Shown here: positions 23,970 to 33,799 of the stretch, one piece after another | Position numbering within the stretch: the stretch's first letter is position 1 | Layout of the letters: the number at the start of each line of letters is the position of its first letter | DNA from: a virus | Lineage: Duplodnaviria > Heunggongvirae > Uroviricota > Caudoviricetes | Reading direction: 5' to 3' (one strand) | DNA: 33,799 nt | Virus record (IMG/VR): IMGVR_UViG_2537561934_000004 | Position numbers and translations under genes: made by a program | Notes under the pieces: model-generated | Databases searched by the model: none | Told to the model about the DNA's origin: nothing | What the model saw: only the letters and a program-made list of their open reading frames with translations

Positions 23970-23999
23970 TTGCTCACCTCTCATATTAAGGAATGAGAT

Positions 24000-24416
24000 A
24001 TGAAAATTGATTATGACGAGATAGCCAGAATATTTGATGTTTTTCTGGAGGCCGACACCGCATTCATTCGACTGGAAGATGTCGGCTGGGAGCGTTCTCA
24101 GCGGCACAGCGACAGCCATCAGAAGCTGGTTTTCCATCTTCTGTTGCTGGTTGAAAATGGTTTTATCAGCAACAGATATCTGGAAACAGGCACCGCAAAA
24201 AGCATTGGTCTCACCCCAACAAGCCTCGGATATTCATATTCAGGCACCAGTGTCAGACTTACACAAGATGGTCATGATTTTGCGAAAGCACTACATCAAA
24301 AACCCATTCTTGAGCGCATAAAACAGGACCTTGCCGACGCCCCGATGACGCTCGTAACAGACGTCGGCAAACAGTGGTTAACCTCGTTTCTTAAAAAGAA
24401 ACTCGGGATTGAATAG
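24000..24416 (+). CDS. Hypothetical protein (138 aa) on the strand opposite to the early operon
   Basis: ATG at 24000 preceded by AAGGAA 8 nt upstream; no internal stops. Its 3' end converges on and overlaps the 24378..24689 gene by 39 nt. No family recognised. Confidence 0.6.
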   Translation: MKIDYDEIARIFDVFLEADTAFIRLEDVGWERSQRHSDSHQKLVFHLLLLVENGFISNRYLETGTAKSIGLTPTSLGYSYSGTSVRLTQDGHDFAKALHQKPILERIKQDLADAPMTLVTDVGKQWLTSFLKKKLGIE

Positions 24417-24689
24417 TTCCCGGTTCATACGTTGCAGCACATCAAGGGCGGCGACAGCCGCCACTTTATCGTTACCATCAGCAATAGTGCGGAGATTTTC
24501 AATAATCCAGTGAGGACTCAGTGACTCAGCAATAATGCCAAACCGGTACGCCATGACTTCATCAATAGCTTTTTCATGAGACGGCTCATATACAAAATTC
24601 ACAAAGTCATGCACTTCTTTTTTCGGCAAACCACCGGCAATCAGCAGGGCGGCAAGCTCTTCTGATTTTGAAAATACACCATTATTCAT
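24378..24689 (-). CDS. Hypothetical early protein (about 103 aa)
   Basis: The ORF-track start at 24704 is a GTG; the first ATG is 24689 (MNNGVFSKSEELAALLIAGG...), preceded by GAAGGTGAG and abutting the upstream stop. Confidence 0.5.
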   Translation of the reverse strand: MNNGVFSKSEELAALLIAGGLPKKEVHDFVNFVYEPSHEKAIDEVMAYRFGIIAESLSPHWIIENLRTIADGNDKVAAVAALDVLQRMNRELFNPEFLFKKRG

Positions 24690-24690
24690 A

Positions 24691-25449
24691 TCACTCACCT
24701 TCACAATTCATGCACGCCGTGTCATCGCCCATATCGCAGTGGTTGCATTTCTGCCCACCACAATGAGGGCACTCTTTCAGATATTCAGGGTTTTCATTAC
24801 CGCAGGTCGGGCATTCCTGTTTCACCGTGGTGAATGTCCCCAGCCACGAATACGAATTTTCACCGACTGTCTTTTTCCCCGTTATTTCTGAATCAGAACT
24901 AATACAGTGTTTTTCAACCCATGCCACACGTGCTGAATTCAGGTGGCATCTGGCCAATTTGCTTTCGTTTCTGTAATGTTTGCTGTCCCGGTTAAATGGC
25001 AATTTCTCATTCAGCCCTGCTGAGATAAAGTCCGCATGTAATTGTTCTAATGCGGCTTCACTGTCTGCACCGGTTGATTCAAAATAATCGTAAGCATTGG
25101 CACATAATCCGGCAGCCCGGGTAAATACATCATCGCCCGTCTCCATTGCCCCATTCTTTAACCATCGGTTGTAGGCTGTATAAAAACTATAAAGTTGCTT
25201 TCTGATACAGGTAGTGGCAGTTCCGCCATTAACTGACGCTGGCGTAACATAGCCAGCTCTGCATAAAGCAGAACGAAGTATATCCAGAACCTGCCAGGCA
25301 TCTTCTCCTTCAATCACGCTACAGTTTTTGTACACCAGGACGTCCCGGCCACAACTTTTATCAATACCCCAGTCTTCAAATTTCACAACCAGCCTCCTGC
25401 ACCACACCCGGTGCTGATGAAAAATCAATGATGAGATAACGCAGTACAT
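24691..25449 (-). CDS. Hypothetical early protein with a C-terminal four-CxxC cluster
   Basis: C-terminus CPTCGNENPEYLKECPHCGGQKCNHCDMGDDTACMNCEGE. The ATG at 25449 overlaps the upstream gene by 74 nt; a GTG at 25386 has an AGGAGG 6 nt upstream and is the more likely start (231 aa). Confidence 0.6.
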   Translation of the reverse strand: MYCVISSLIFHQHRVWCRRLVVKFEDWGIDKSCGRDVLVYKNCSVIEGEDAWQVLDILRSALCRAGYVTPASVNGGTATTCIRKQLYSFYTAYNRWLKNGAMETGDDVFTRAAGLCANAYDYFESTGADSEAALEQLHADFISAGLNEKLPFNRDSKHYRNESKLARCHLNSARVAWVEKHCISSDSEITGKKTVGENSYSWLGTFTTVKQECPTCGNENPEYLKECPHCGGQKCNHCDMGDDTACMNCEGE

Positions 25450-25915
25450 GGTCGGTGATATTCCAGGCGCTGGAACTGCAAATAAACCGCCCCAGCCGGA
25501 TATCGATATAAGCCATCACAAAACGGGGCATTCCCTGTTTGCACATCTCGTCATCCACTTCTGCAACGATGTGAACGGACTCACAGGTCAGTACGCCTGT
25601 CGCAAACTCTTTTGCCAGTGCGGGGATGGTATTACCTTCCACCCAGGGTAATGAGCGACGCCAGTTGCACCACACCGCATCATCAACAGCAGGCTGCTCA
25701 GTTGCGTTTCGTCTTACCGGCGGCGTCTGACGCGGGCGCGGAACGTCATAAAATCCGTTGCATTCGGTGAGCACTCCGGCATCAACCGCATCACGCAGGA
25801 AATACACCATTGCGGAGGGTGGCATCTGCATTTTTTCAGCCAGAACCCCGCAGGTCAGGCGTCCGTAAGCCCGTAATAATGTGCTGACACCATTCAGAAT
25901 TTTTGCATCAACCAT
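25376..25915 (-). CDS. Hypothetical early protein with a possible N-terminal winged-helix domain
   Basis: 179-aa ORF with GAGGAA Shine-Dalgarno; the helix-turn-helix call on residues ~1-55 (LAEKMQMPPSAMVYFLRDAVDAGVL) is a visual impression only; Cys/Trp-rich C-terminal domain of unknown function. Confidence 0.6.
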   Translation of the reverse strand: MVDAKILNGVSTLLRAYGRLTCGVLAEKMQMPPSAMVYFLRDAVDAGVLTECNGFYDVPRPRQTPPVRRNATEQPAVDDAVWCNWRRSLPWVEGNTIPALAKEFATGVLTCESVHIVAEVDDEMCKQGMPRFVMAYIDIRLGRFICSSSAWNITDHVLRYLIIDFSSAPGVVQEAGCEI

Positions 25916-26013
25916 GTTTTATTCCTCAGTAATCTGTTTCAGGCGCGAGCAATCCCCTGACGCATCGCGCCATAATTAAAAGAATGTGAATTAATTAAAT
26001 ATTAATGGTGGTA

Positions 26014-26538
26014 TTAAATACCGGCTTCCTGTTCAAACGGAATAATGGAAAAATCTTCAATTCCCGATTTAACCGTAATTCCGGCAACACCTGCGACGGC
26101 TTTTGGTTCCAGTAAAATCGCCTCCTTGTTGATTTCCTGCTTCGTGCGAATAAAGCGTTGCAGGCCAAGACGCTCCAGCGTTTCCATCACTGCATCCATA
26201 CCACGAATACTTACTGATGGTGGACGGACCCGCCACGATACATCACCGGTGACAAGATTCGCCGTCTTCACTTTGCCGCCGTTCGTCAGTTCGTCGCGGT
26301 TCGCTTCACACCATCCCTGAACGCCTTTTGAAAGGGTTTCAATATCGGTTTTAATCGGTGCAATCCGGGCCGCAAATTTCTCCGTAATTTCCGCGATGGC
26401 ATCATTCATTTCCGTTTCCAGACGTGATGCTTCGCGCTGTAAATCCCCGATGCGTTTAATATCGGTAATCACCGCATCGCGGTTTTGTGGCACATAAGCC
26501 GCTGCGGCACTCTTGATACGTTTTGCTGGTTTAGCCAT
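26014..26538 (-). CDS. gam: Host-nuclease inhibitor Gam (DNA end-binding)
   Basis: 174-aa ORF of Mu Gam length in the Mu gam position; the sequence MAKPAKRIKSAAAAYVPQNRD... matches Mu Gam as I recall it. Confidence 0.9.
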   Translation of the reverse strand: MAKPAKRIKSAAAAYVPQNRDAVITDIKRIGDLQREASRLETEMNDAIAEITEKFAARIAPIKTDIETLSKGVQGWCEANRDELTNGGKVKTANLVTGDVSWRVRPPSVSIRGMDAVMETLERLGLQRFIRTKQEINKEAILLEPKAVAGVAGITVKSGIEDFSIIPFEQEAGI

Positions 26539-26557
26539 AAATTAAAGCTCCTGTTAA

Positions 26558-26857
26558 TTAATATCCGCTGTATACAATGCTGGATACAGCTCGATTGCTT
26601 AATTCCATCTTTCGGGCAATGACATGAATATCCAGCCCTTCTTTATAAAGTTCACGACATAAATATTTGTCGTGTTCACTGATTCGGTATACACACAATG
26701 ATATTCCGTGCCTTCTGGCATGTGCCCGGAGGGCGGTTGTGGCGACTTTCAGTTTTTCCGCCATTTCTTCAACGGTCATTTTCCCGACGTTGGCTTCGAT
26801 AAATTCCCGGTCTTCGCGTGACCAGCGCTTACGATTACACTTCATGTCAGCCACCAT
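26558..26857 (-). CDS. Small early protein with two helix-turn-helix-like segments
   Basis: 99-aa ORF between B and gam; segments WSREDREFIEANVGKMTVEEMAEKLKV and ISEHDKYLCRELYKEGLDIHVIARKMELS look like HTH repeats. Confidence 0.55.
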   Translation of the reverse strand: MVADMKCNRKRWSREDREFIEANVGKMTVEEMAEKLKVATTALRAHARRHGISLCVYRISEHDKYLCRELYKEGLDIHVIARKMELSNRAVSSIVYSGY

Positions 26858-27277
26858 TCAGTACAGCAGAGGCTCGCGCAGTGATGCCGGAATATGCCGC
26901 AGCGATAACTGAACCGCTTTCAGGGCAAGCGAGGAATAACAGCAGCGCGCCCAGCCTTTTGCCATTAACCGGTAATCGCGCCAGATACGCTGCCACATTT
27001 CACGGGCCTCAGGGTCTGATGCGCAGATGTATTCCCGGTCCATGACGTACTCCCATAAATCCACGTTGAACGCACCGCCAAATGCAATGGCGCGGGATAT
27101 GCTTTCGCCGCAATAACGCGCACAAATGCTGTAATGGTCGAAAGCAATCAGGTAAGTCTTTTCACCACAATCATCAACTTTCCGGGCGCAAATAAACTCG
27201 CGTAATTCACCACCGTTGTTATTGCGTTCCTGAATTCGGATTAATGCCTGAATTTCATTTCGGATTTTGACGTTCAT
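26858..27277 (-). CDS. Hypothetical early protein (139 aa)
   Basis: ORF abutting the downstream gene within the B-gam block; no recognised motif. Confidence 0.55.
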   Translation of the reverse strand: MNVKIRNEIQALIRIQERNNNGGELREFICARKVDDCGEKTYLIAFDHYSICARYCGESISRAIAFGGAFNVDLWEYVMDREYICASDPEAREMWQRIWRDYRLMAKGWARCCYSSLALKAVQLSLRHIPASLREPLLY

Positions 27278-27297
27278 TGTCAGCGTTCCTTTGCGAA

Positions 27298-27567
27298 TTA
27301 ATGTCTGGCTGTATTCGGGTTATAGCTGAATAATTCCCCCTCGGCTTCCAGCCCAAGCTCCCTGGCTGATTTCAACAACTCCTCGGTCGCTTTTTTAATG
27401 ATTTCAGGAGCCATGCTCTTGATGATGCCTGCCATTACATCATGTGGCCCGGTCTGGTCCTCAGGTGAGGATTCTTCCAGTCGCACATTCATATTTACGG
27501 CAAAACCTCCATTTTCCTGAAACTCAATATTTCTTGTATTGTTAAATTCAAAGATTACTTTTGCCAT
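27298..27567 (-). CDS. Hypothetical early protein (89 aa), acidic
   Basis: ORF in the B-gam block; no recognised motif. Confidence 0.55.
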   Translation of the reverse strand: MAKVIFEFNNTRNIEFQENGGFAVNMNVRLEESSPEDQTGPHDVMAGIIKSMAPEIIKKATEELLKSARELGLEAEGELFSYNPNTARH

Positions 27568-27587
27568 TTTTCTTCTCCTTATTGATT

Positions 27588-27833
27588 CTAAATAACTGCG
27601 CTGGCTTTTACCTTCGCGCCTTTTACCTGCTTAAAGAAAACTGCGCTGCACCACGGACAACATGTCAGGGAATCCCAAATTTCCTTTTCGTGTGAGCATT
27701 GCGTCATAATCTGTTCACCGCATCCGGGGCATTTATATGTCGTCAGCGGCACCCCGTGGCACTGACAGTGTTTAACCCATTCAATATATTTTTCAGCTTT
27801 AATACACATCGTTATCTCCAGATAATCTGACAA
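27588..27833 (-). CDS. Cys-rich putative zinc-binding small protein
   Basis: CxC and CPGC/CCPWC motifs (HCQCHG...KCPGCGEQ...CCPWC). Likely start is ATG 27809 (MCIKAEK...), which avoids overlap with the upstream gene. Confidence 0.55.
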
Positions 27834-28039
27834 CCATTAAGACGGGCCGTCCATACAGAACGGGCCACCCCGGACTTATGCTCCATAATCCTGACCGCGT
27901 TTTTTACCAGTTCCACCGGTGGGTAAGTGATTTCAAGAATCGGACGCGCCACGCCGAGATATGATTCATTTACATGACTCCCGCGCGCCTGTAACCAGTT
28001 CTGCGCATCCGTTGCCATTTTTATATTTCGGGCCATCAT
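27812..28039 (-). CDS. Kil-like small protein (first gene after B)
   Basis: 75-aa ORF at the position Mu kil occupies; assignment is by position and size only. Confidence 0.5.
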
Positions 28040-28054
28040 AATTTCTTCTCCTTC

Positions 28055-28993
28055 TTAATTACGCAGCAGCGTTGAAATATCAACGTCCAGGTCTAATTCA
28101 CGGAAAGCCTGACGCAGATAATCTTCGTTAACACGCTCACCTTTACCGTGAGCCGTCATGGCGGCAAGGCGAAGTGAATGATTCAGAATGCGAAGCGCAC
28201 CTGGTTTCTGCGCAATCTGCTGTAATAACTCCAGTTCATTTTCGCCGTTAATCTGCCAGGCATCCGCAATAGCTTTTACATCGGCTTTTTTTGTTTTATT
28301 AATTGCAGTGCGCTTTGCAATACGGGAAAACAGACGGGCAAATTCAACCGTTCTGTTACCCCCCGTCATATTTGAATAAACCCGGTGATTTCCCATCAGC
28401 ACAAGGCCAGTGCGGGTTGATTCCTGTAACAGGCGGAGTTCTTCCAGAACTTCGGCACCAAGATGATCAGCTTCGTCGATGATAACCAGCCCCTGTGTAC
28501 CTTCAAGGCGACGTCGCAGGGCACGGGAAAGTGGCCCTTTACGGCGTGGTGCGTCATTCATTCCCAGCTCAAACGCCAGTTCAGTAAGACATTCCAGAAC
28601 ACTGGCGCAGGATGGCGTAATGGTGATCATCCAGACATTGTTATTGGTGCGGCGATATTCACGGGCCGCTTCGGTTTTGCCCACACCAGGATTGCCACAT
28701 ACAACAGCAATACTTTCAGTCAGGCTGGCAAAACGCATACTTGTCCAGATTTGTTTTACCGTCTGCGTTTCCACAAAGCGGGGCGGTTCAGGTAGTTCTG
28801 CAACTGCATGATATTTTTCCAGCCAGCGTTGCAGCATTTGTGAAACACGCTCGTTATCCCCGTTGTACTTATCATTGATAAAACTACTGATAGTTCCGGT
28901 AGAAAGTCCGCTCTCAAGAGCAATTTGTTTAAAGGTGGTTTCTTCATTTTCTACAAGCGTGCGCAGTCCTGCGCGAATATCGGAAATATTCAT
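28055..28993 (-). CDS. B: Transposition target-DNA activator MuB (AAA+ ATPase)
   Basis: 312-aa ORF (Mu B is 312 aa) with Walker A GNPGVGKT and Walker B-like IIDEAD; immediately downstream of the transposase. Confidence 0.9.
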   Translation of the reverse strand: MNISDIRAGLRTLVENEETTFKQIALESGLSTGTISSFINDKYNGDNERVSQMLQRWLEKYHAVAELPEPPRFVETQTVKQIWTSMRFASLTESIAVVCGNPGVGKTEAAREYRRTNNNVWMITITPSCASVLECLTELAFELGMNDAPRRKGPLSRALRRRLEGTQGLVIIDEADHLGAEVLEELRLLQESTRTGLVLMGNHRVYSNMTGGNRTVEFARLFSRIAKRTAINKTKKADVKAIADAWQINGENELELLQQIAQKPGALRILNHSLRLAAMTAHGKGERVNEDYLRQAFRELDLDVDISTLLRN

Positions 28994-29031
28994 CTGAATA
29001 ACCTCGTAATTAAATTTTGTTTAAACGTTAA

Positions 29032-31020
29032 TTAAATGGCTTTTTTACGTCTGTTCTGTTCCAGAATATCCAGCGAATGATTCAGATATTCATCACGCTC
29101 AGTTTCGTATTCATCATCACGCTCCTGATTCTTCACCCGTTCCGTATTACCGGAAGGCCGGAAAATGCCGACAATTCGTGATTCTGGTGCTTCAGGTTCG
29201 GCTATCTGCGGCAGCAGCTCTGCCACTTCCAGTGCATCCATTTGTTTCTGTGCCTTAATCGCTGCTTTCGTCGCAGATTTCAGTTGTTTCTGGCGGCGGC
29301 GATATTCACGGCCTGCCGCAGCATCATTAAACGCAACAGGTGCCAGACATTCCGCTTCACAGATAAACCGACCGTCCAGGGTGTAACAATAAACCGTGCT
29401 GTGTAGCTGCTGCGGATCAAACCTGACCACAACTTTTTTCACGCCGGCATTCATTAATGCCATGTTGTAATAAACGTTTTTCGCGCCTTTAAGGGAGCCG
29501 CCAACTTTAAGCGTAAACTCGCCTTTGCGTGAAACGTTCACCGCCTCGGCAGGCAGTAACAGCATCCGTTTTTGTTCTTCGGTTGGCTTACGCACAATCG
29601 TTCTGGCGTATTCACGCTCGAAAACATCATCAAACGAGAGTTTGCCCCCGCACATTTCTGTTTCACGGCCTGTTCTGGCATTGAACATCGCCACACCTTC
29701 GGCAAGGTTTTTCAGAAACAGCTCTGCATCAACAGCGCGGTTGCCATAGTTATCAGGTTTTGCCTGCGGATTTGGCCCCGTATATGCGCCAGCCAGTGCC
29801 GGATGCTTATCAACGTATTCCTCAAGCCCACCAACACCGAAAGCACGTTCAACAGGTTTTGCCTGGCCCCAGCCTTTACCGGCAACAACGCTTGTCCAGT
29901 GCATTTTCGCACCCATCAGTAAAAACAATCCCTTTGGATCGTCTTCTTTCACCTTAAAGCGGTAGCGATTGGGCGCGCCTCCCGTCAGCCATTTATTCGC
30001 AGCACCACGGGTGTTATCAATGGTGATGTGAAAATCCTCCGGGATACCGTAGCGAGTCACAACATCCATGAACGAGAGGCGAATTGAATCAATGTTCTCG
30101 CTCACATCGCAGCGCCAGCCCAGAATTTTTCGGGTTTTCACATCCTGCCAGAACCATGTTTTCGGGCGGATCACATCACCGTTAAACCAGCGTACAAAGA
30201 CGTTATGCAGATAACCGTCGCCGTTGATCCACTGCATGGCGTCCAGGTGTTCCACAGTTCGCTGCTGTGCCGGTATCAGATGCATCAGTGCATGTTCACC
30301 TTCACGACAGGCAACAACCATTGCCTCGTCCAGTTGCTGAATCCGGCGAAAGGCCGTGGCACGGGAGGGAATACTCCAGCCATGCTCGCGGGCTGCCAGT
30401 TCCAGACGCTCATAACATTTGCGGAAGGCGGGTTTTTCCGGTCGCAGATAATCTGCAATCAGAAACTGCCAGGCATCCTCGTCAAATTCACTTTTGTGAA
30501 CATTGCGACGGGATGCACCACGTCCATCAACAAGTGCAGCCGCCCAGTCAGGCTTCGCAAACTTCTGTACCTGGTAATACTTGTCCCGCAAAGTGGATGC
30601 GCTGACCTGGTAATGCCCTGCAACGGTCGCAAAAGCCGTTTTCGTTGAAATCCCCTGGTTCAGCATTTCGTCTGCAGCCTGAACCGCAGGCAACCATTTT
30701 TCAGCAAGTCTGCGCTGGGAATCGCTGGCTTTATCCCATTTGCTCCACAGCACCTCACGATCATAATCATGGGCTTCCAGCGTGGGGCGGGCGATTTCAA
30801 AACGGCCCAGGCTTGTTTCAATTCTCCCTTGTTGCAACAGAATTTCAGCACGTAATGCGACAGGGAATGATTTGATATTGAATTCAAATGATACACCTTT
30901 AGTCCCTGCAACCTGTCTGAACTCCCAGCCTTCTCTTTGTGCCTTACGTGTAATGTTAGTGGCTTGCTTTGGTAAACCTGCCAAACCGAGCAACTCTTTT
31001 GCTGTATACCATTCTTTCAT
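29032..31020 (-). CDS. A: DDE transposase MuA
   Basis: 662-aa ORF. Acidic residues at D268 (WINGDGY), D335 (HITIDNTRG) and E391 (KPVERAF) sit one residue before MuA D269/D336/E392. The C-terminus ends QNRRKKAI, the MuA tail recognised by ClpX. Confidence 0.95.
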
Positions 31021-31027
31021 AGCGCAC

Positions 31028-31249
31028 CTAGTATCGAGACGGCCAAATATCTTGCGGTGTCATTCCCAGTGCATCTGCAATGATTTTCTCCGCTTTCGGA
31101 TATCTCTTATCCAAAGCATTTTTTAATGTTGAAGACGAAAGATGATTAGATCTTCCCAATTCAGCTAGTGACATATTGCGTTTTCGTAGCTCTGCAACGA
31201 TGTCAGCTCTGTGCCAATCTTGGCGGTTAGTTCTTTTATTCATATGCAT
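31028..31249 (-). CDS. ner: Ner-like DNA-binding regulator
   Basis: 73-aa ORF between the operator region and the transposase; ends ...[14 protein letters not shown], resembling the Ner/Nlp family C-terminus as I recall it. Confidence 0.8.
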
Positions 31250-31434
31250 TTCATGTAATCCTTTCAGATTCCCCCGCGAGCTACGCTATAAAGTAGCTCA
31301 CGGCATATCGTGCAATGTAGTGTGGAATCACTTTCAAATCAATAGTGATTTGAAAGGATTTGCCATGATTTCATATAACAGCATGATTTTTATATGAATT
31401 TATTTTGTCTCTATTGAAATCACTAGGATTTTAA
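31250..31434. promoter_or_regulatory. Divergent early/repressor promoter and operator region (expected to overlap the transposition enhancer)
   Basis: 185-bp gap between divergent ner and c, about 0.95 kb from the left end. Contains an 11-bp perfect inverted repeat CTTTCAAATCA-ATAG-TGATTTGAAAG at 31331..31356 and AT-rich tracts. Confidence 0.6.
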
Positions 31435-31959
31435 ATGATGTCTTTTGAAATCAAAGAATGGTTTAATGCGAAAGAGCTGGAAGGGATGCCTGGTGTACCA
31501 AAGTTGGCGACTAACATTACCAGGAAAGCTGTGGCGGAAGATTGGGTAAAACGTCAGCGTCACGGTGGGAAAGGTGTCGCTTATGAGTATCACATCAACA
31601 GTCTGCCAGAAGAAACACGCAGGGCCATTAAAGGAGCCTCACTTTCTGATAAACCAGTGCATACATCAATCGCCCATACAGTTGATGAGAGGCTAATTTA
31701 TGCAATGAGCTTCTTAACACCAGATGAGCAGGCCGCAGCTGTGGAGATCATTCGTGTGGCAGGGATTAAAGGACTTATGCCTACAATTGTCAGTAAAGAT
31801 AAGGCATTAGAGGCATTAGGGATTACTGTGGAGCAACAGAAAACCCTGCAAACTCTTCAGGCATTACCACCGGAAAAAGTGAGAGAGATTTTGTCTCAGT
31901 ATGAAGGCAAAGAACATAATTTCCCTGTAAGAGAAAACGATGTAAAGAAAGCTGTATAA
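31435..31959 (+). CDS. c: Mu-type repressor (c)
   Basis: 174-aa ORF divergent from ner. Its N-terminus ([61 protein letters not shown]) parallels the transposase N-terminus ([60 protein letters not shown]). Confidence 0.8.
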   Translation: MMSFEIKEWFNAKELEGMPGVPKLATNITRKAVAEDWVKRQRHGGKGVAYEYHINSLPEETRRAIKGASLSDKPVHTSIAHTVDERLIYAMSFLTPDEQAAAVEIIRVAGIKGLMPTIVSKDKALEALGITVEQQKTLQTLQALPPEKVREILSQYEGKEHNFPVRENDVKKAV

Positions 31960-32124
31960 CAACCAGGTAATAGCTAAGACATAAACTTCACTCCAGGCAA
32001 TTACATATGTAAGATACCCAAACAGTGATGATTGTTTTTGACACACATCACTTGCTGAAAGCCTGGTTGTTACCGTTTTTGAAGCATTTTTGAAGCTGTA
32101 CTTGAAATGATGCGTGAAGTAATT

Positions 32125-32298
32125 GCTTTTCGTGTCTTTAATGAATCAAAAGCTGTTTCCAACAATCTTTCGCGTTTCAAGATGTAACGGCTAAAATCTG
32201 TCCTACAGGCTTGCAAGCCCCACTAAATCTAATCCCGCCAAATCCCGAATAATCCAATGTCCTCCCGGTTTTTTTCGTACTTCAAGTGAATCAATACA
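32125..32298 (-). repeat. Prophage left end with three MuA-binding repeats (L1, L2, L3)
   Basis: On the minus strand: L1 TGTATTGATTCACTTGAAGTACGAAAAAA (32298..32270), L2 CATCTTGAAACGCGAAAG (32184..32167), L3 TGATTCATTAAAGACACGAAAAGC (32148..32125). All carry the (A/C)CGAAA(A) core and the spacing (about 0-28, 114-131, 150-173 bp from the end) matches Mu attL. Confidence 0.8.
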
Positions 32299-32706
32299 CC
32301 CGATTATATTTCCCGCTACGGGAAGCCAGAAACGATCGACGATTTAAAGCAACATATTTGCCTGGGATTCACTGAACCCGCTTCCCTCAATACCTGGCCG
32401 ATAGCCCGTAGCGATGGACAATTACATGAGGTGAAGTACGGTTTGTCATCCAATAGTGGGGAAACACTGAAACAGCTTTGCCTGAGTGGCAACGGGATTG
32501 CGTGTTTGTCCGACTACATGATCGACAAAGAAATCGCTCGCGGAGAATTGGTGGAGTTAATGGCAGATAAAGTGTTGCCAGTGGAAATGCCATTCAGTGC
32601 CGTCTATTACAGCGACCGTGCGGTAAGTACGCGCATCCGGGCTTTTATCGATTTCCTTAGCGAGCATGTAAAAACAGCTCCCGGAGGAGCTGTCAGAGAG
32701 GCTTAA
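32299..32706 (+). pseudogene. yafC: LysR-type regulator gene (yafC-like) truncated at its 5' end by the prophage
   Basis: The frame translating ...[56 protein letters not shown]... is open from the prophage junction to the stop at 32706. It has no start codon or N-terminal helix-turn-helix; only the C-terminal effector domain remains. Convergent with dkgB as in E. coli. Confidence 0.75.
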
Positions 32707-33506
32707 TCCCATTCAGGAGCCAGACCTTCCGGGCTAACCAGGCGGTCGTTGCAATCCAGTGCGGCGATCGCTTTTTTATCTTCGGCATCAAGCTGTAAAT
32801 TTTGTGCCTTAAGATTACTTTCCAGGTTTTTACGTTTAGTAGAAGAAGGAATTACTGAGTAACCTTCCCCCATAGCCCACGCCAGAATCACTTGTGCCGG
32901 AGTCGCATTGTGTTTAGCTGCGATACGAGCAATAACCTCATCTTTCAGGGCCTTACCATACGCCAGCGTCATATAGGAAGTAATATGGATGCCGTGCTGT
33001 TTAGCCCAGGCAACCACTTTACGGTTTTGCAGATAAGGAGAGAGTTCAATCTGGTTAGTAGCGATGTTTTCAGCACCAACAGCAGCAATCGCTTTTTCCA
33101 TCAACGGGATCGTGAAGTTGGAAATACCGATCTCACGCGTCAGCCCTTGTTTTTTGGCTTCCAGCAGCGCCTGCATAAACTCTTCAACAGAGACTTCATC
33201 GTTTGGTGACGGCCAGTGGATTAGCGTCAGATCAACATAATCGGTACGCAATTTTTGCAGGCTCTCTTTCAGACTTGGGATCAATTTGTCTTTGCTGAGA
33301 TTTTCAATCCAGATTTTAGTGGTGATGTAGAGTTCATGACGTGGCACGCCACTTTCTGCAATCGCCTGACCTACTGCGGCTTCGTTATCATAGATTTGTG
33401 CGGTATCAATTGCGCGATAACCAAGTTCAAGCGCCGTTATCACAGATGAAATAACAACGTCGTCTTTCAGACGGAAAGTACCTAAACCAAATGCAGGGAT
33501 AGCCAT
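32703..33506 (-). CDS. dkgB: Aldo-keto reductase, 2,5-diketo-D-gluconate reductase B
   Basis: 267-aa [21 protein letters not shown]... with aldo-keto reductase motifs ([27 protein letters not shown]); length equals E. coli DkgB. Confidence 0.9.
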
Positions 33507-33628
33507 AATATGCCTCTTTTAATGCTATTTTCGTTAACTGAGGTGATTATGGGCTTCAGACTGTTGAGGAAAAAGAGCGTAAAATGCAGAGGATTTTTGC
33601 GATTCTGGCAATAATAGATATACAGACG

Positions 33629-33656
33629 AAAAAAAACCTCGAGCGTTAACTCGAGG
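33629..33656 (-). terminator. Rho-independent terminator downstream of tRNA-Asp
   Basis: Minus strand reads CCTCGAG-TTAACG-CTCGAGG followed by TTTTTTTT, about 12 nt after the tRNA 3' end. Confidence 0.7.
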
Positions 33657-33668
33657 CTTCTTAATAAG

Positions 33669-33745
33669 TGGCGGAACGGACGGGACTCGAACCCGCGACC
33701 CCCTGCGTGACAGGCAGGTATTCTAACCGACTGAACTACCGCTCC
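33669..33745 (-). tRNA. aspU: tRNA-Asp (anticodon GUC)
   Basis: Minus strand reads GGAGCGGTAGTTCAGTCGGTTAGAATACCTGCCTGTCACGCAGGGGGTCGCGGGTTCGAGTCCCGTCCGTTCCGCCA (77 nt, encoded CCA), anticodon loop CUGUCAC. The symbol aspU is inferred from adjacency to dkgB; it could be another Asp copy. Confidence 0.9.
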
Positions 33746-33799
33746 ACCGAATTCTTTTACAACCACCGGTTTTATGACCGGCTTACTGCTTAATTTGAT

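Follow-up and report, generated by a model that had tools for sequence, protein, structure and literature searches.

The analysed stretch of DNA, called the window in the following, has a length of 33,799 nucleotides and contains the early region of a Mu-like phage with a repressor gene and a transposase gene oriented divergently. The repressor gene c (31435-31959, plus strand) codes for a protein of 174 amino acids and is directed toward the phage end, whereas the early operon ner-A-B runs the opposite way, and both diverge from a control region of 185 bp that lies between c and ner. The first gene of the early operon, ner (31249-31028, minus strand), encodes 73 amino acids and is followed by the transposase gene A (31020-29032, minus strand), encoding 662 amino acids, and by B (28993-28055, minus strand), which encodes the transposition ATPase and served as conserved backbone comparator. 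The genes c, ner and A are intact ORFs, the former two being of the D108 type. The Pfam domains PF02316, PF09039, PF02914, and PF09299 were identified in the transposase, and B contains PF09077 and AAA_22. Ner was assigned to the Ner/Nlp family (PF13693, HTH_35) with 99.3 bits at a cut-off of 25, and it matches the structures of Mu Ner (PDB 1NEQ/1NER, E = 2e-18) and of EnrR (7F9H, E = 2e-22).

The left end of the prophage, attL, is located at 31960-32298 on the minus strand and could be read directly from the sequence. Its terminus (TGTATTGATTCAC...) ends at position 32298; on the minus strand, the phage terminus reads TGTATTGATTCACTTGAAGTACGAAAAAAA. Two A-binding sites (32272-32288 and 32127-32143) are predicted in attL by transferring the coordinates from the D108 annotation. 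The remaining sequence, from 32299 to 33799, is the flank of the E. coli host with the 3′ part of yafC, dkgB and tRNA-Asp, all of which gave megablast matches of 100% to E. coli chromosomes. The chromosomal identity starts exactly at position 32299, and yafC is interrupted by the prophage. The junction between prophage and yafC is spanned by none of the 5,426 complete E. coli genomes in RefSeq.

The repressor and the transposase had been seen by eye to align closely over their first approximately 60 residues, and pairwise alignment confirmed this. Residues 6-65 of c and 1-60 of A were aligned by BLASTP without gaps and with 33 of 60 identities (55%, E = 7e-18). The local alignment of c and A reached a score of 164, compared to a maximum of 46 across 300 shuffles (z = 31), and the similarity is significant. 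A profile-profile comparison with hhalign, covering 26 repressors and the N-terminal regions of 26 transposases, revealed a single shared stretch, in which residues 6-67 of c correspond to residues 1-65 of A (probability 99.7%, E = 8e-26), and this places the limit of the similarity at about 65 residues. A homology extending past this point, as hinted at by Pfam matches of 134 positions in both proteins, was rejected, since only the first 65 columns were found by the profile-profile comparison.

Both proteins also passed the gathering threshold of 23.3 bits for PF02316 (HTH_Tnp_Mu_1), c with 173.6 bits and A with 142.7 bits; the domain shared by c and A is already encoded as a Pfam family. The N-terminus of c matches residues 1-76 of MuA (PDB 1TNS, E = 7e-8) as well as the DNA-binding domain of the Mu repressor (1G4D, E = 6e-4), and the same two structures were found for the N-terminus of A (E = 1e-16 and E = 1e-4, respectively). 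These matches in both proteins support the Mu-type arrangement with a common N-terminal DNA-binding domain which the original prediction had proposed. Judging from the sequence, the shared domain is the winged-helix domain of the Mu family, known as the I-alpha domain in the transposase and as the DNA-binding domain in the repressor. The DNA-binding domain of the repressor (c residues 6-65) is encoded at 31450-31629 on the plus strand and is paralogous to the enhancer-binding I-alpha domain of the transposase (A residues 1-60), which is encoded at 30841-31020 on the minus strand and is specific for D108. Within this domain, a putative recognition stretch, ATNITRKA, is identical between c (residues 25-32) and A (residues 20-27). 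In Mu, the corresponding stretch differs, with AGVHYRA in c and AGVIYVA in A. Because the putative stretch is the same in both proteins of the window, c and A would both be expected at the same TGATTT(S)A repeats, and its being unlike the pair in Mu agrees with heteroimmunity and an enhancer that has been re-keyed along with it.

To place the region relative to the known phages, 29032-32100 was compared to D108 (GQ357916) and to Mu_3F6 by megablast, resulting in a DNA identity of 98.3% over 100% of the query. Mu matched only the query positions 1-1801, i.e., 29032-30832 of the window. In a blastn comparison at the whole-genome level, Mu (AF083977) matched 27535-30832 with 98.2% and 31939-32298 with 79.6% identity, whereas no nucleotide match to it was found for 30833-31938. 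The homology to D108 is unbroken from 25393 to 32298 (blastn) and amounts to 98.3% over 29032-32298. The boundary of the Mu homology at position 30832 lies at about codon 63 of A, and the block without nucleotide homology to Mu (30833-31938) comprises codons 1 to approximately 63 of A, ner, the operators and nearly all of c. Absence of Mu homology from this block, while the D108 match continues across it, shows that the I-alpha part of A, ner, the operators and c have been replaced together as a unit relative to Mu. The G+C content across 30833-31938 is 41-44%, compared to 50-57% in most of the prophage.

The same pattern was found for the proteins. The repressor c is 98.9% identical to D108 c (172/174) and differs from Mu_3F6 c at a single position (173/174), but it shows only 31% identity to Mu c. 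Ner agrees with its D108 counterpart at every residue (73/73, 100%), and its identity to Mu Ner is 49%. The complete transposase shows 98.9% identity to D108 and 93.2% to Mu, with nearly all differences to Mu in residues 1-63: residues 1-70 are identical to D108, residues 1-62 are about 40% identical to Mu, and from about residue 64 onward the identity to Mu is about 99%. B is 100% identical to D108 and 99.4% to Mu, and Kil and Gam are each 100% identical to both phages. The N-terminus of A, Ner and the repressor are therefore indeed more diverged from Mu than B and Gam, as had been stated from the sequence, and the suggestion of a possibly D108-like immunity type holds for the DNA as well as for all three proteins. 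Near-identity of c, ner and the operators to those of Mu, as in the Mu immunity type, was not found. What characterizes the D108 type is present, namely c, Ner, an A I-alpha domain joined to a Mu-like remainder, and the operator/Ner-site region.

D108 (GQ357916/NC_013594) has the same gene order and the same gene sizes (c 174, ner 73, and A 662 amino acids). Over the last 2,066 bp it differs from the window by 22 substitutions. Five changes are located in the c-ner spacer, and only two differences were counted over 31960-32298. The backbone of late genes (165-23969) is only about 96.6% identical to D108, and the cargo stretch 23970-25392 of the window is unrelated to it. The architecture is also like that of Mu, with repressor and early operon being divergent and a winged-helix domain being common to repressor and I-alpha, and B, kil, gam and the part of A beginning at about residue 64 are 98-100% identical between Mu and the window. 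The c/A pair of Mu itself is about 40% identical, and its c is annotated with 196 amino acids in AF083977 compared to 174 in the window.

The c-ner spacer is identical to that of D108 at 180 of its 185 positions (201 of 206 columns including the flanking coding bases). The predicted Ner operator is located on the ner side of the spacer, at 31274-31303, and consists of an 11-bp inverted repeat with an AT-rich spacer of 8 bp (CCGCGAGCTAC gctataaa GTAGCTCACGG), which we take to be the published Ner operator of D108. The inverted repeat is perfect in D108, in Mu_3F6 and in three E. coli prophages; the window carries a private T to C substitution at position 31277.

A putative operator and transposition enhancer region (31331-31453) comprises a cluster of TGATTT(S)A repeats, a palindrome and an IHF-like site. 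The motif TGATTTSA occurs five times within 120 bp (31334-31453), out of ten copies in the whole window of 33.8 kb; 3.1 copies were expected there, and none of 100 shuffles reached ten. The perfect palindrome CTTTCAAATCA-4-TGATTTGAAAG is found at 31331-31356, and the IHF-like site, which has one mismatch, at 31376-31388 between two sub-clusters of the repeats. The exact IHF consensus was not found in the control region, where only sites with one mismatch are present. D108 shares both the Ner inverted repeat and TGATTT-type repeats with the window, whereas TGATTTSA was not found in the operator region of Mu. The latter contains five copies of CTTTTYNRWAW, presumably the consensus of the Mu repressor, of which there is none in the control region of the window. 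The control regions of the two phages carry different sets of repeats. By analogy, the repressor and A would bind TGATTTSA and Ner the inverted repeat. A sigma-70 consensus scan of 31000-32300 yielded no more matches than shuffled sequences, and for the early promoter on the minus strand it gave no strong sigma-70 match.

Based on these results, we assign a probability of about 95% to the region being the left-end module that controls lysogeny and transposition of a Muvirus (Mu family) prophage in yafC of E. coli, with the immunity type of D108. It could be objected that the element is a defective remnant whose control region is no longer functional, as the window does not reach the right end of the prophage, yafC is interrupted and the Ner inverted repeat carries its private substitution at 31277. 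However, neither truncations nor stops were found in c, ner, A, B, kil, gp6-9, and gam, whose products are 99-100% identical to the D108 proteins, the left terminus and the A-binding sites are intact, and the sequence preceding the region is collinear and Mu/D108-like over about 32 kb. Such a decay seems unlikely.

Whether c and A are matched in Mu-like prophages more generally was examined by scanning one genome per species with the A protein. This yielded 80 loci, 63 of which had enough upstream sequence. At 30 of these 63 loci, a divergent upstream gene shares the N-terminal domain of the transposase with 42-65% identity. From the non-redundant c-A pairs, 26 in number including those of the window and of Mu, the mean identity of c to the A of its own locus was calculated as 51% compared to 37% across loci, and none of 20,000 permutations reached the observed mean. 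The A of the same locus is the closest one to its c at only nine of the 26 loci. The recognition stretches are matched within each of several Mu-like phages. After a lone ancient duplication and subsequent independent drift, pairs within and across loci should be equally similar, so that the excess speaks for a co-evolution of the c-A pair. On balance, the DNA-binding domain of the repressor and the I-alpha domain seem to co-diversify as a matched pair in the Mu-like prophages of many Gammaproteobacteria.

The same excess of 51% over 37%, which is not expected from a single ancient duplication and independent drift, could also arise if the likeness of c and A resulted from recent gene conversion between their inverted 5′ ends and not from selection that has long favored a common DNA target. 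This is doubtful, as the two c/A segments of 180 nt are only 59% identical in their DNA, and matches at third codon positions (26/60) are less frequent than those at first and second positions (40/60), which indicates an old divergence under constraint at the protein level; the limited number of loci at which the own A is nearest to its c also argues against it. For the phage of the window, a recent conversion of the 5′ ends was rejected due to the third-codon identity of only 26/60, and selection on a shared target is favored over recent conversion because of the low DNA and third-codon identity.

The idea that the prophage represents a new, third immunity type which merely resembles D108 and has an altered operator or repressor specificity starts from two amino acid differences in c, where D108 has N50 and V80 and the window Y50 and A80 (N50Y, V80A; the former lies in the DNA-binding domain), and from the five substitutions in the control region, two of which perfect the palindrome at 31331-31356 while one falls into the Ner repeat. 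It is highly improbable and was rejected, since Y50 is shared by the four further natural copies that were examined (Mu_3F6 and E. coli 22KM0354, E24377A, and A20), with the D108 reference being the outlier, since only 5 of 2,066 bases differ between 22KM0354 and the window, since Ner and residues 1-70 of A are identical to D108, and since the 45 E. coli copies normally vary by 1-2% as alleles. The differences between the window and the D108 reference are allelic.

With the immunity type being that of D108, a mechanism can be proposed in analogy to Mu. The Mu repressor silences the early promoter via the operators O1-O3, and the enhancer, which overlaps O1-O2 and is bound by the transposase, consists of two clusters of MuA sites with an IHF site between them (PMC3145075). 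The anatomy of the c-ner spacer in the window matches this arrangement of operator and enhancer. Following the Mu model (PMC3145075), c and A would bind in the operator/enhancer region at 31331-31453, and the identical ATNITRKA stretch together with the repeat cluster suggests that they would use one and the same operator/enhancer DNA. The winged-helix domains with which repressor and transposase start, each comprising about 65 residues, are paralogous. Bound to the TGATTT(S)A repeats as operators, c would shut off the early promoter, and the I-alpha domain of the transposase, on the same repeats as transposition enhancer (IAS), would help in the assembly of the transpososome. By competing for the enhancer sites, the repressor could additionally block transposition directly. 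Ner, a small HTH protein, would bind to the adjoining 11-8-11 inverted repeat and damp both divergent promoters during lytic growth. As the I-alpha part of A, ner, the operators and c have been swapped jointly and the remainder of A, B, kil, and gam resembles Mu at about 99-100%, the specificities of immunity and enhancer would shift together as one unit, and the phage would be heteroimmune to Mu. These pairings of proteins and sites, the positions of the promoters and the heteroimmunity are predicted from the biochemistry of Mu and D108.

The homology between repressor and transposase has been described before. It is stated in a passage of PMC3820752, which cites Harshey et al. (1985) and Mizuuchi et al. 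(1986) for it (refs 51-52). Of the works cited there, Harshey et al. (1985; PNAS 82:7676) concerns the c/A homology of Mu, and Mizuuchi, Weisberg and Mizuuchi (1986; Nucleic Acids Res 14:3813) already states the arrangement for D108 in its title. The observation of a shared domain and of a D108-type region is real and was read correctly, but it has been known since 1985-86. The coupling of immunity to enhancer specificity, established for Mu and D108 from 1985 to 1989, is a textbook example of the modular evolution of regulation.

The D108-type block is also found in further elements. SfMu (KP010268) carries the same immunity block with 93.9% DNA identity over 96% of the region, and for its c and Ner proteins, identities of 89% and 98% to D108 compared to 24% and 47% to Mu are reported (PMC4406740). 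In D108-type prophages of E. coli, e.g., of E24377A and 22KM0354, the same block is 98.6-99.6% identical. SfMu and these E. coli prophages differ from the window in their chromosomal insertion sites and in the cargo of the early region. Among the 5,426 complete E. coli genomes, the D108-type block was found in 45 (80-100% identity) and the Mu-type block in 27, many of the Mu-type matches listed being laboratory or engineered strains (e.g., BW2952, W derivatives, and S17-1). Among the complete E. coli genomes examined, the block of the D108 type is somewhat commoner than that of the Mu type.

The window itself is one more copy of the D108 type and moves no open question. Its main value lies in the correct annotation as a prophage of the D108 immunity type and not of the Mu type, which predicts which superinfecting phages are excluded and which enhancer the transposase uses. 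The probable co-diversification of c and A extends the two-phage observation of 1986 to many Mu-like prophages, although the mechanism itself is not new. Several such prophages can reside in one genome, as exemplified by Avibacterium paragallinarum NCTC11296 with at least six MuA loci. If the co-diversification holds true, every change of immunity would necessarily re-key the transposition enhancer, and co-resident Mu-like prophages could be kept from cross-repressing or cross-activating one another.

Sequence comparison shows the prophage to be a mosaic. Its late-gene backbone (165-23969) is about equally distant from the two reference phages, with identities of 96.8% to Mu and 96.6% to D108, and the early region of the window (25393-32298) is 98.3% identical to D108. 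Within the early genes, gp11 (25385-25915) is nearer to Mu (91.5%) than to D108 (86.9%). Gene 7 (27298-27567) encodes an 89 amino acids long protein of phrog_2230, which has 100% identity to its D108 counterpart and only 23% to gp7 of Mu. This gene forms a second small D108-specific replacement in an early region which is otherwise Mu-like.

In addition, a stretch of the early region at 23970-25392 was found without a match to Mu, D108 or Mu_3F6, and SfMu and the Yersinia Mu-like phages cover only 30% of it. The stretch contains a 138-aa ORF on the plus strand (24000-24416), which is antisense to the early operon and belongs to phrog_585 and for which no Pfam match was found, as well as two ORFs on the minus strand, coding for 108 aa (phrog_1988) and 252 aa (phrog_6418). 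The whole stretch looks like a variable cargo slot.

At its left end (32298/32299), the prophage adjoins the 3′ part of the E. coli gene yafC coding for a LysR-family regulator, and the insertion therefore disrupts this gene. This junction was not found in any of the complete RefSeq E. coli genomes. The right end of the prophage and the target duplication fall outside the window.

Two single positions of the immunity region differ among close relatives. The first one is position 31277 in the inverted repeat 31274-31303, the presumed Ner operator. Here, the window carries a private T to C change, which breaks an otherwise perfect 11-bp repeat; a T is present in D108, in Mu_3F6 and in three prophages of E. 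coli. This change could weaken Ner binding, be neutral or be a sequencing error. The second one is codon 50 of the repressor gene c (31582-31584), located in the DNA-binding domain. It encodes Tyr50 in the window, in Mu_3F6 and in three E. coli prophages (strains 22KM0354, E24377A, and A20), and Asn50 in the D108 reference (GQ357916). Paralogues and orthologues have a hydrophobic or aromatic residue at this site: F in the prophage's own transposase A, I in MuA and V in the Mu repressor. Asn50 may be a laboratory repressor mutation, possibly temperature-sensitive, in the sequenced D108 stock.

Among the other MuA loci compared, two from Shigella flexneri SFBU1023 (L006) and E. coli ECMA0423 (L007) seem to combine a close Mu backbone with a third immunity type. 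Their A protein is 91% identical, but stops at 544 aa. A different matched stretch, GVHKRA, is present in the upstream repressor and in the Iα domain at the N-terminus of A, and these two share only about 39-42% identity.

An upstream ORF with the transposase N-terminal domain is absent in 33 of the 63 MuA loci with enough upstream sequence, about half (e.g., L010, L015, L025, and L050), which presumably have another kind of repressor. Two loci (L009 and L063) lie on 1.5-1.6 kb scaffolds of Streptomyces sp. E11-3 and encode MuA fragments that share 99% and 83% identity with the protein of the E. coli phage; the assembly is probably contaminated by enterobacterial or Mu-derived DNA.

Finally, at least six distinct MuA loci were identified in the single genome of Avibacterium paragallinarum NCTC11296 (L068, L070, L072, L073, L080, and L083), three of them with a repressor sharing the N-terminal domain. 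The repressor DNA-binding domains vary among the copies, with 37-44% identity between the repressors, a pattern that fits heteroimmune Mu-like prophages residing together in one genome.
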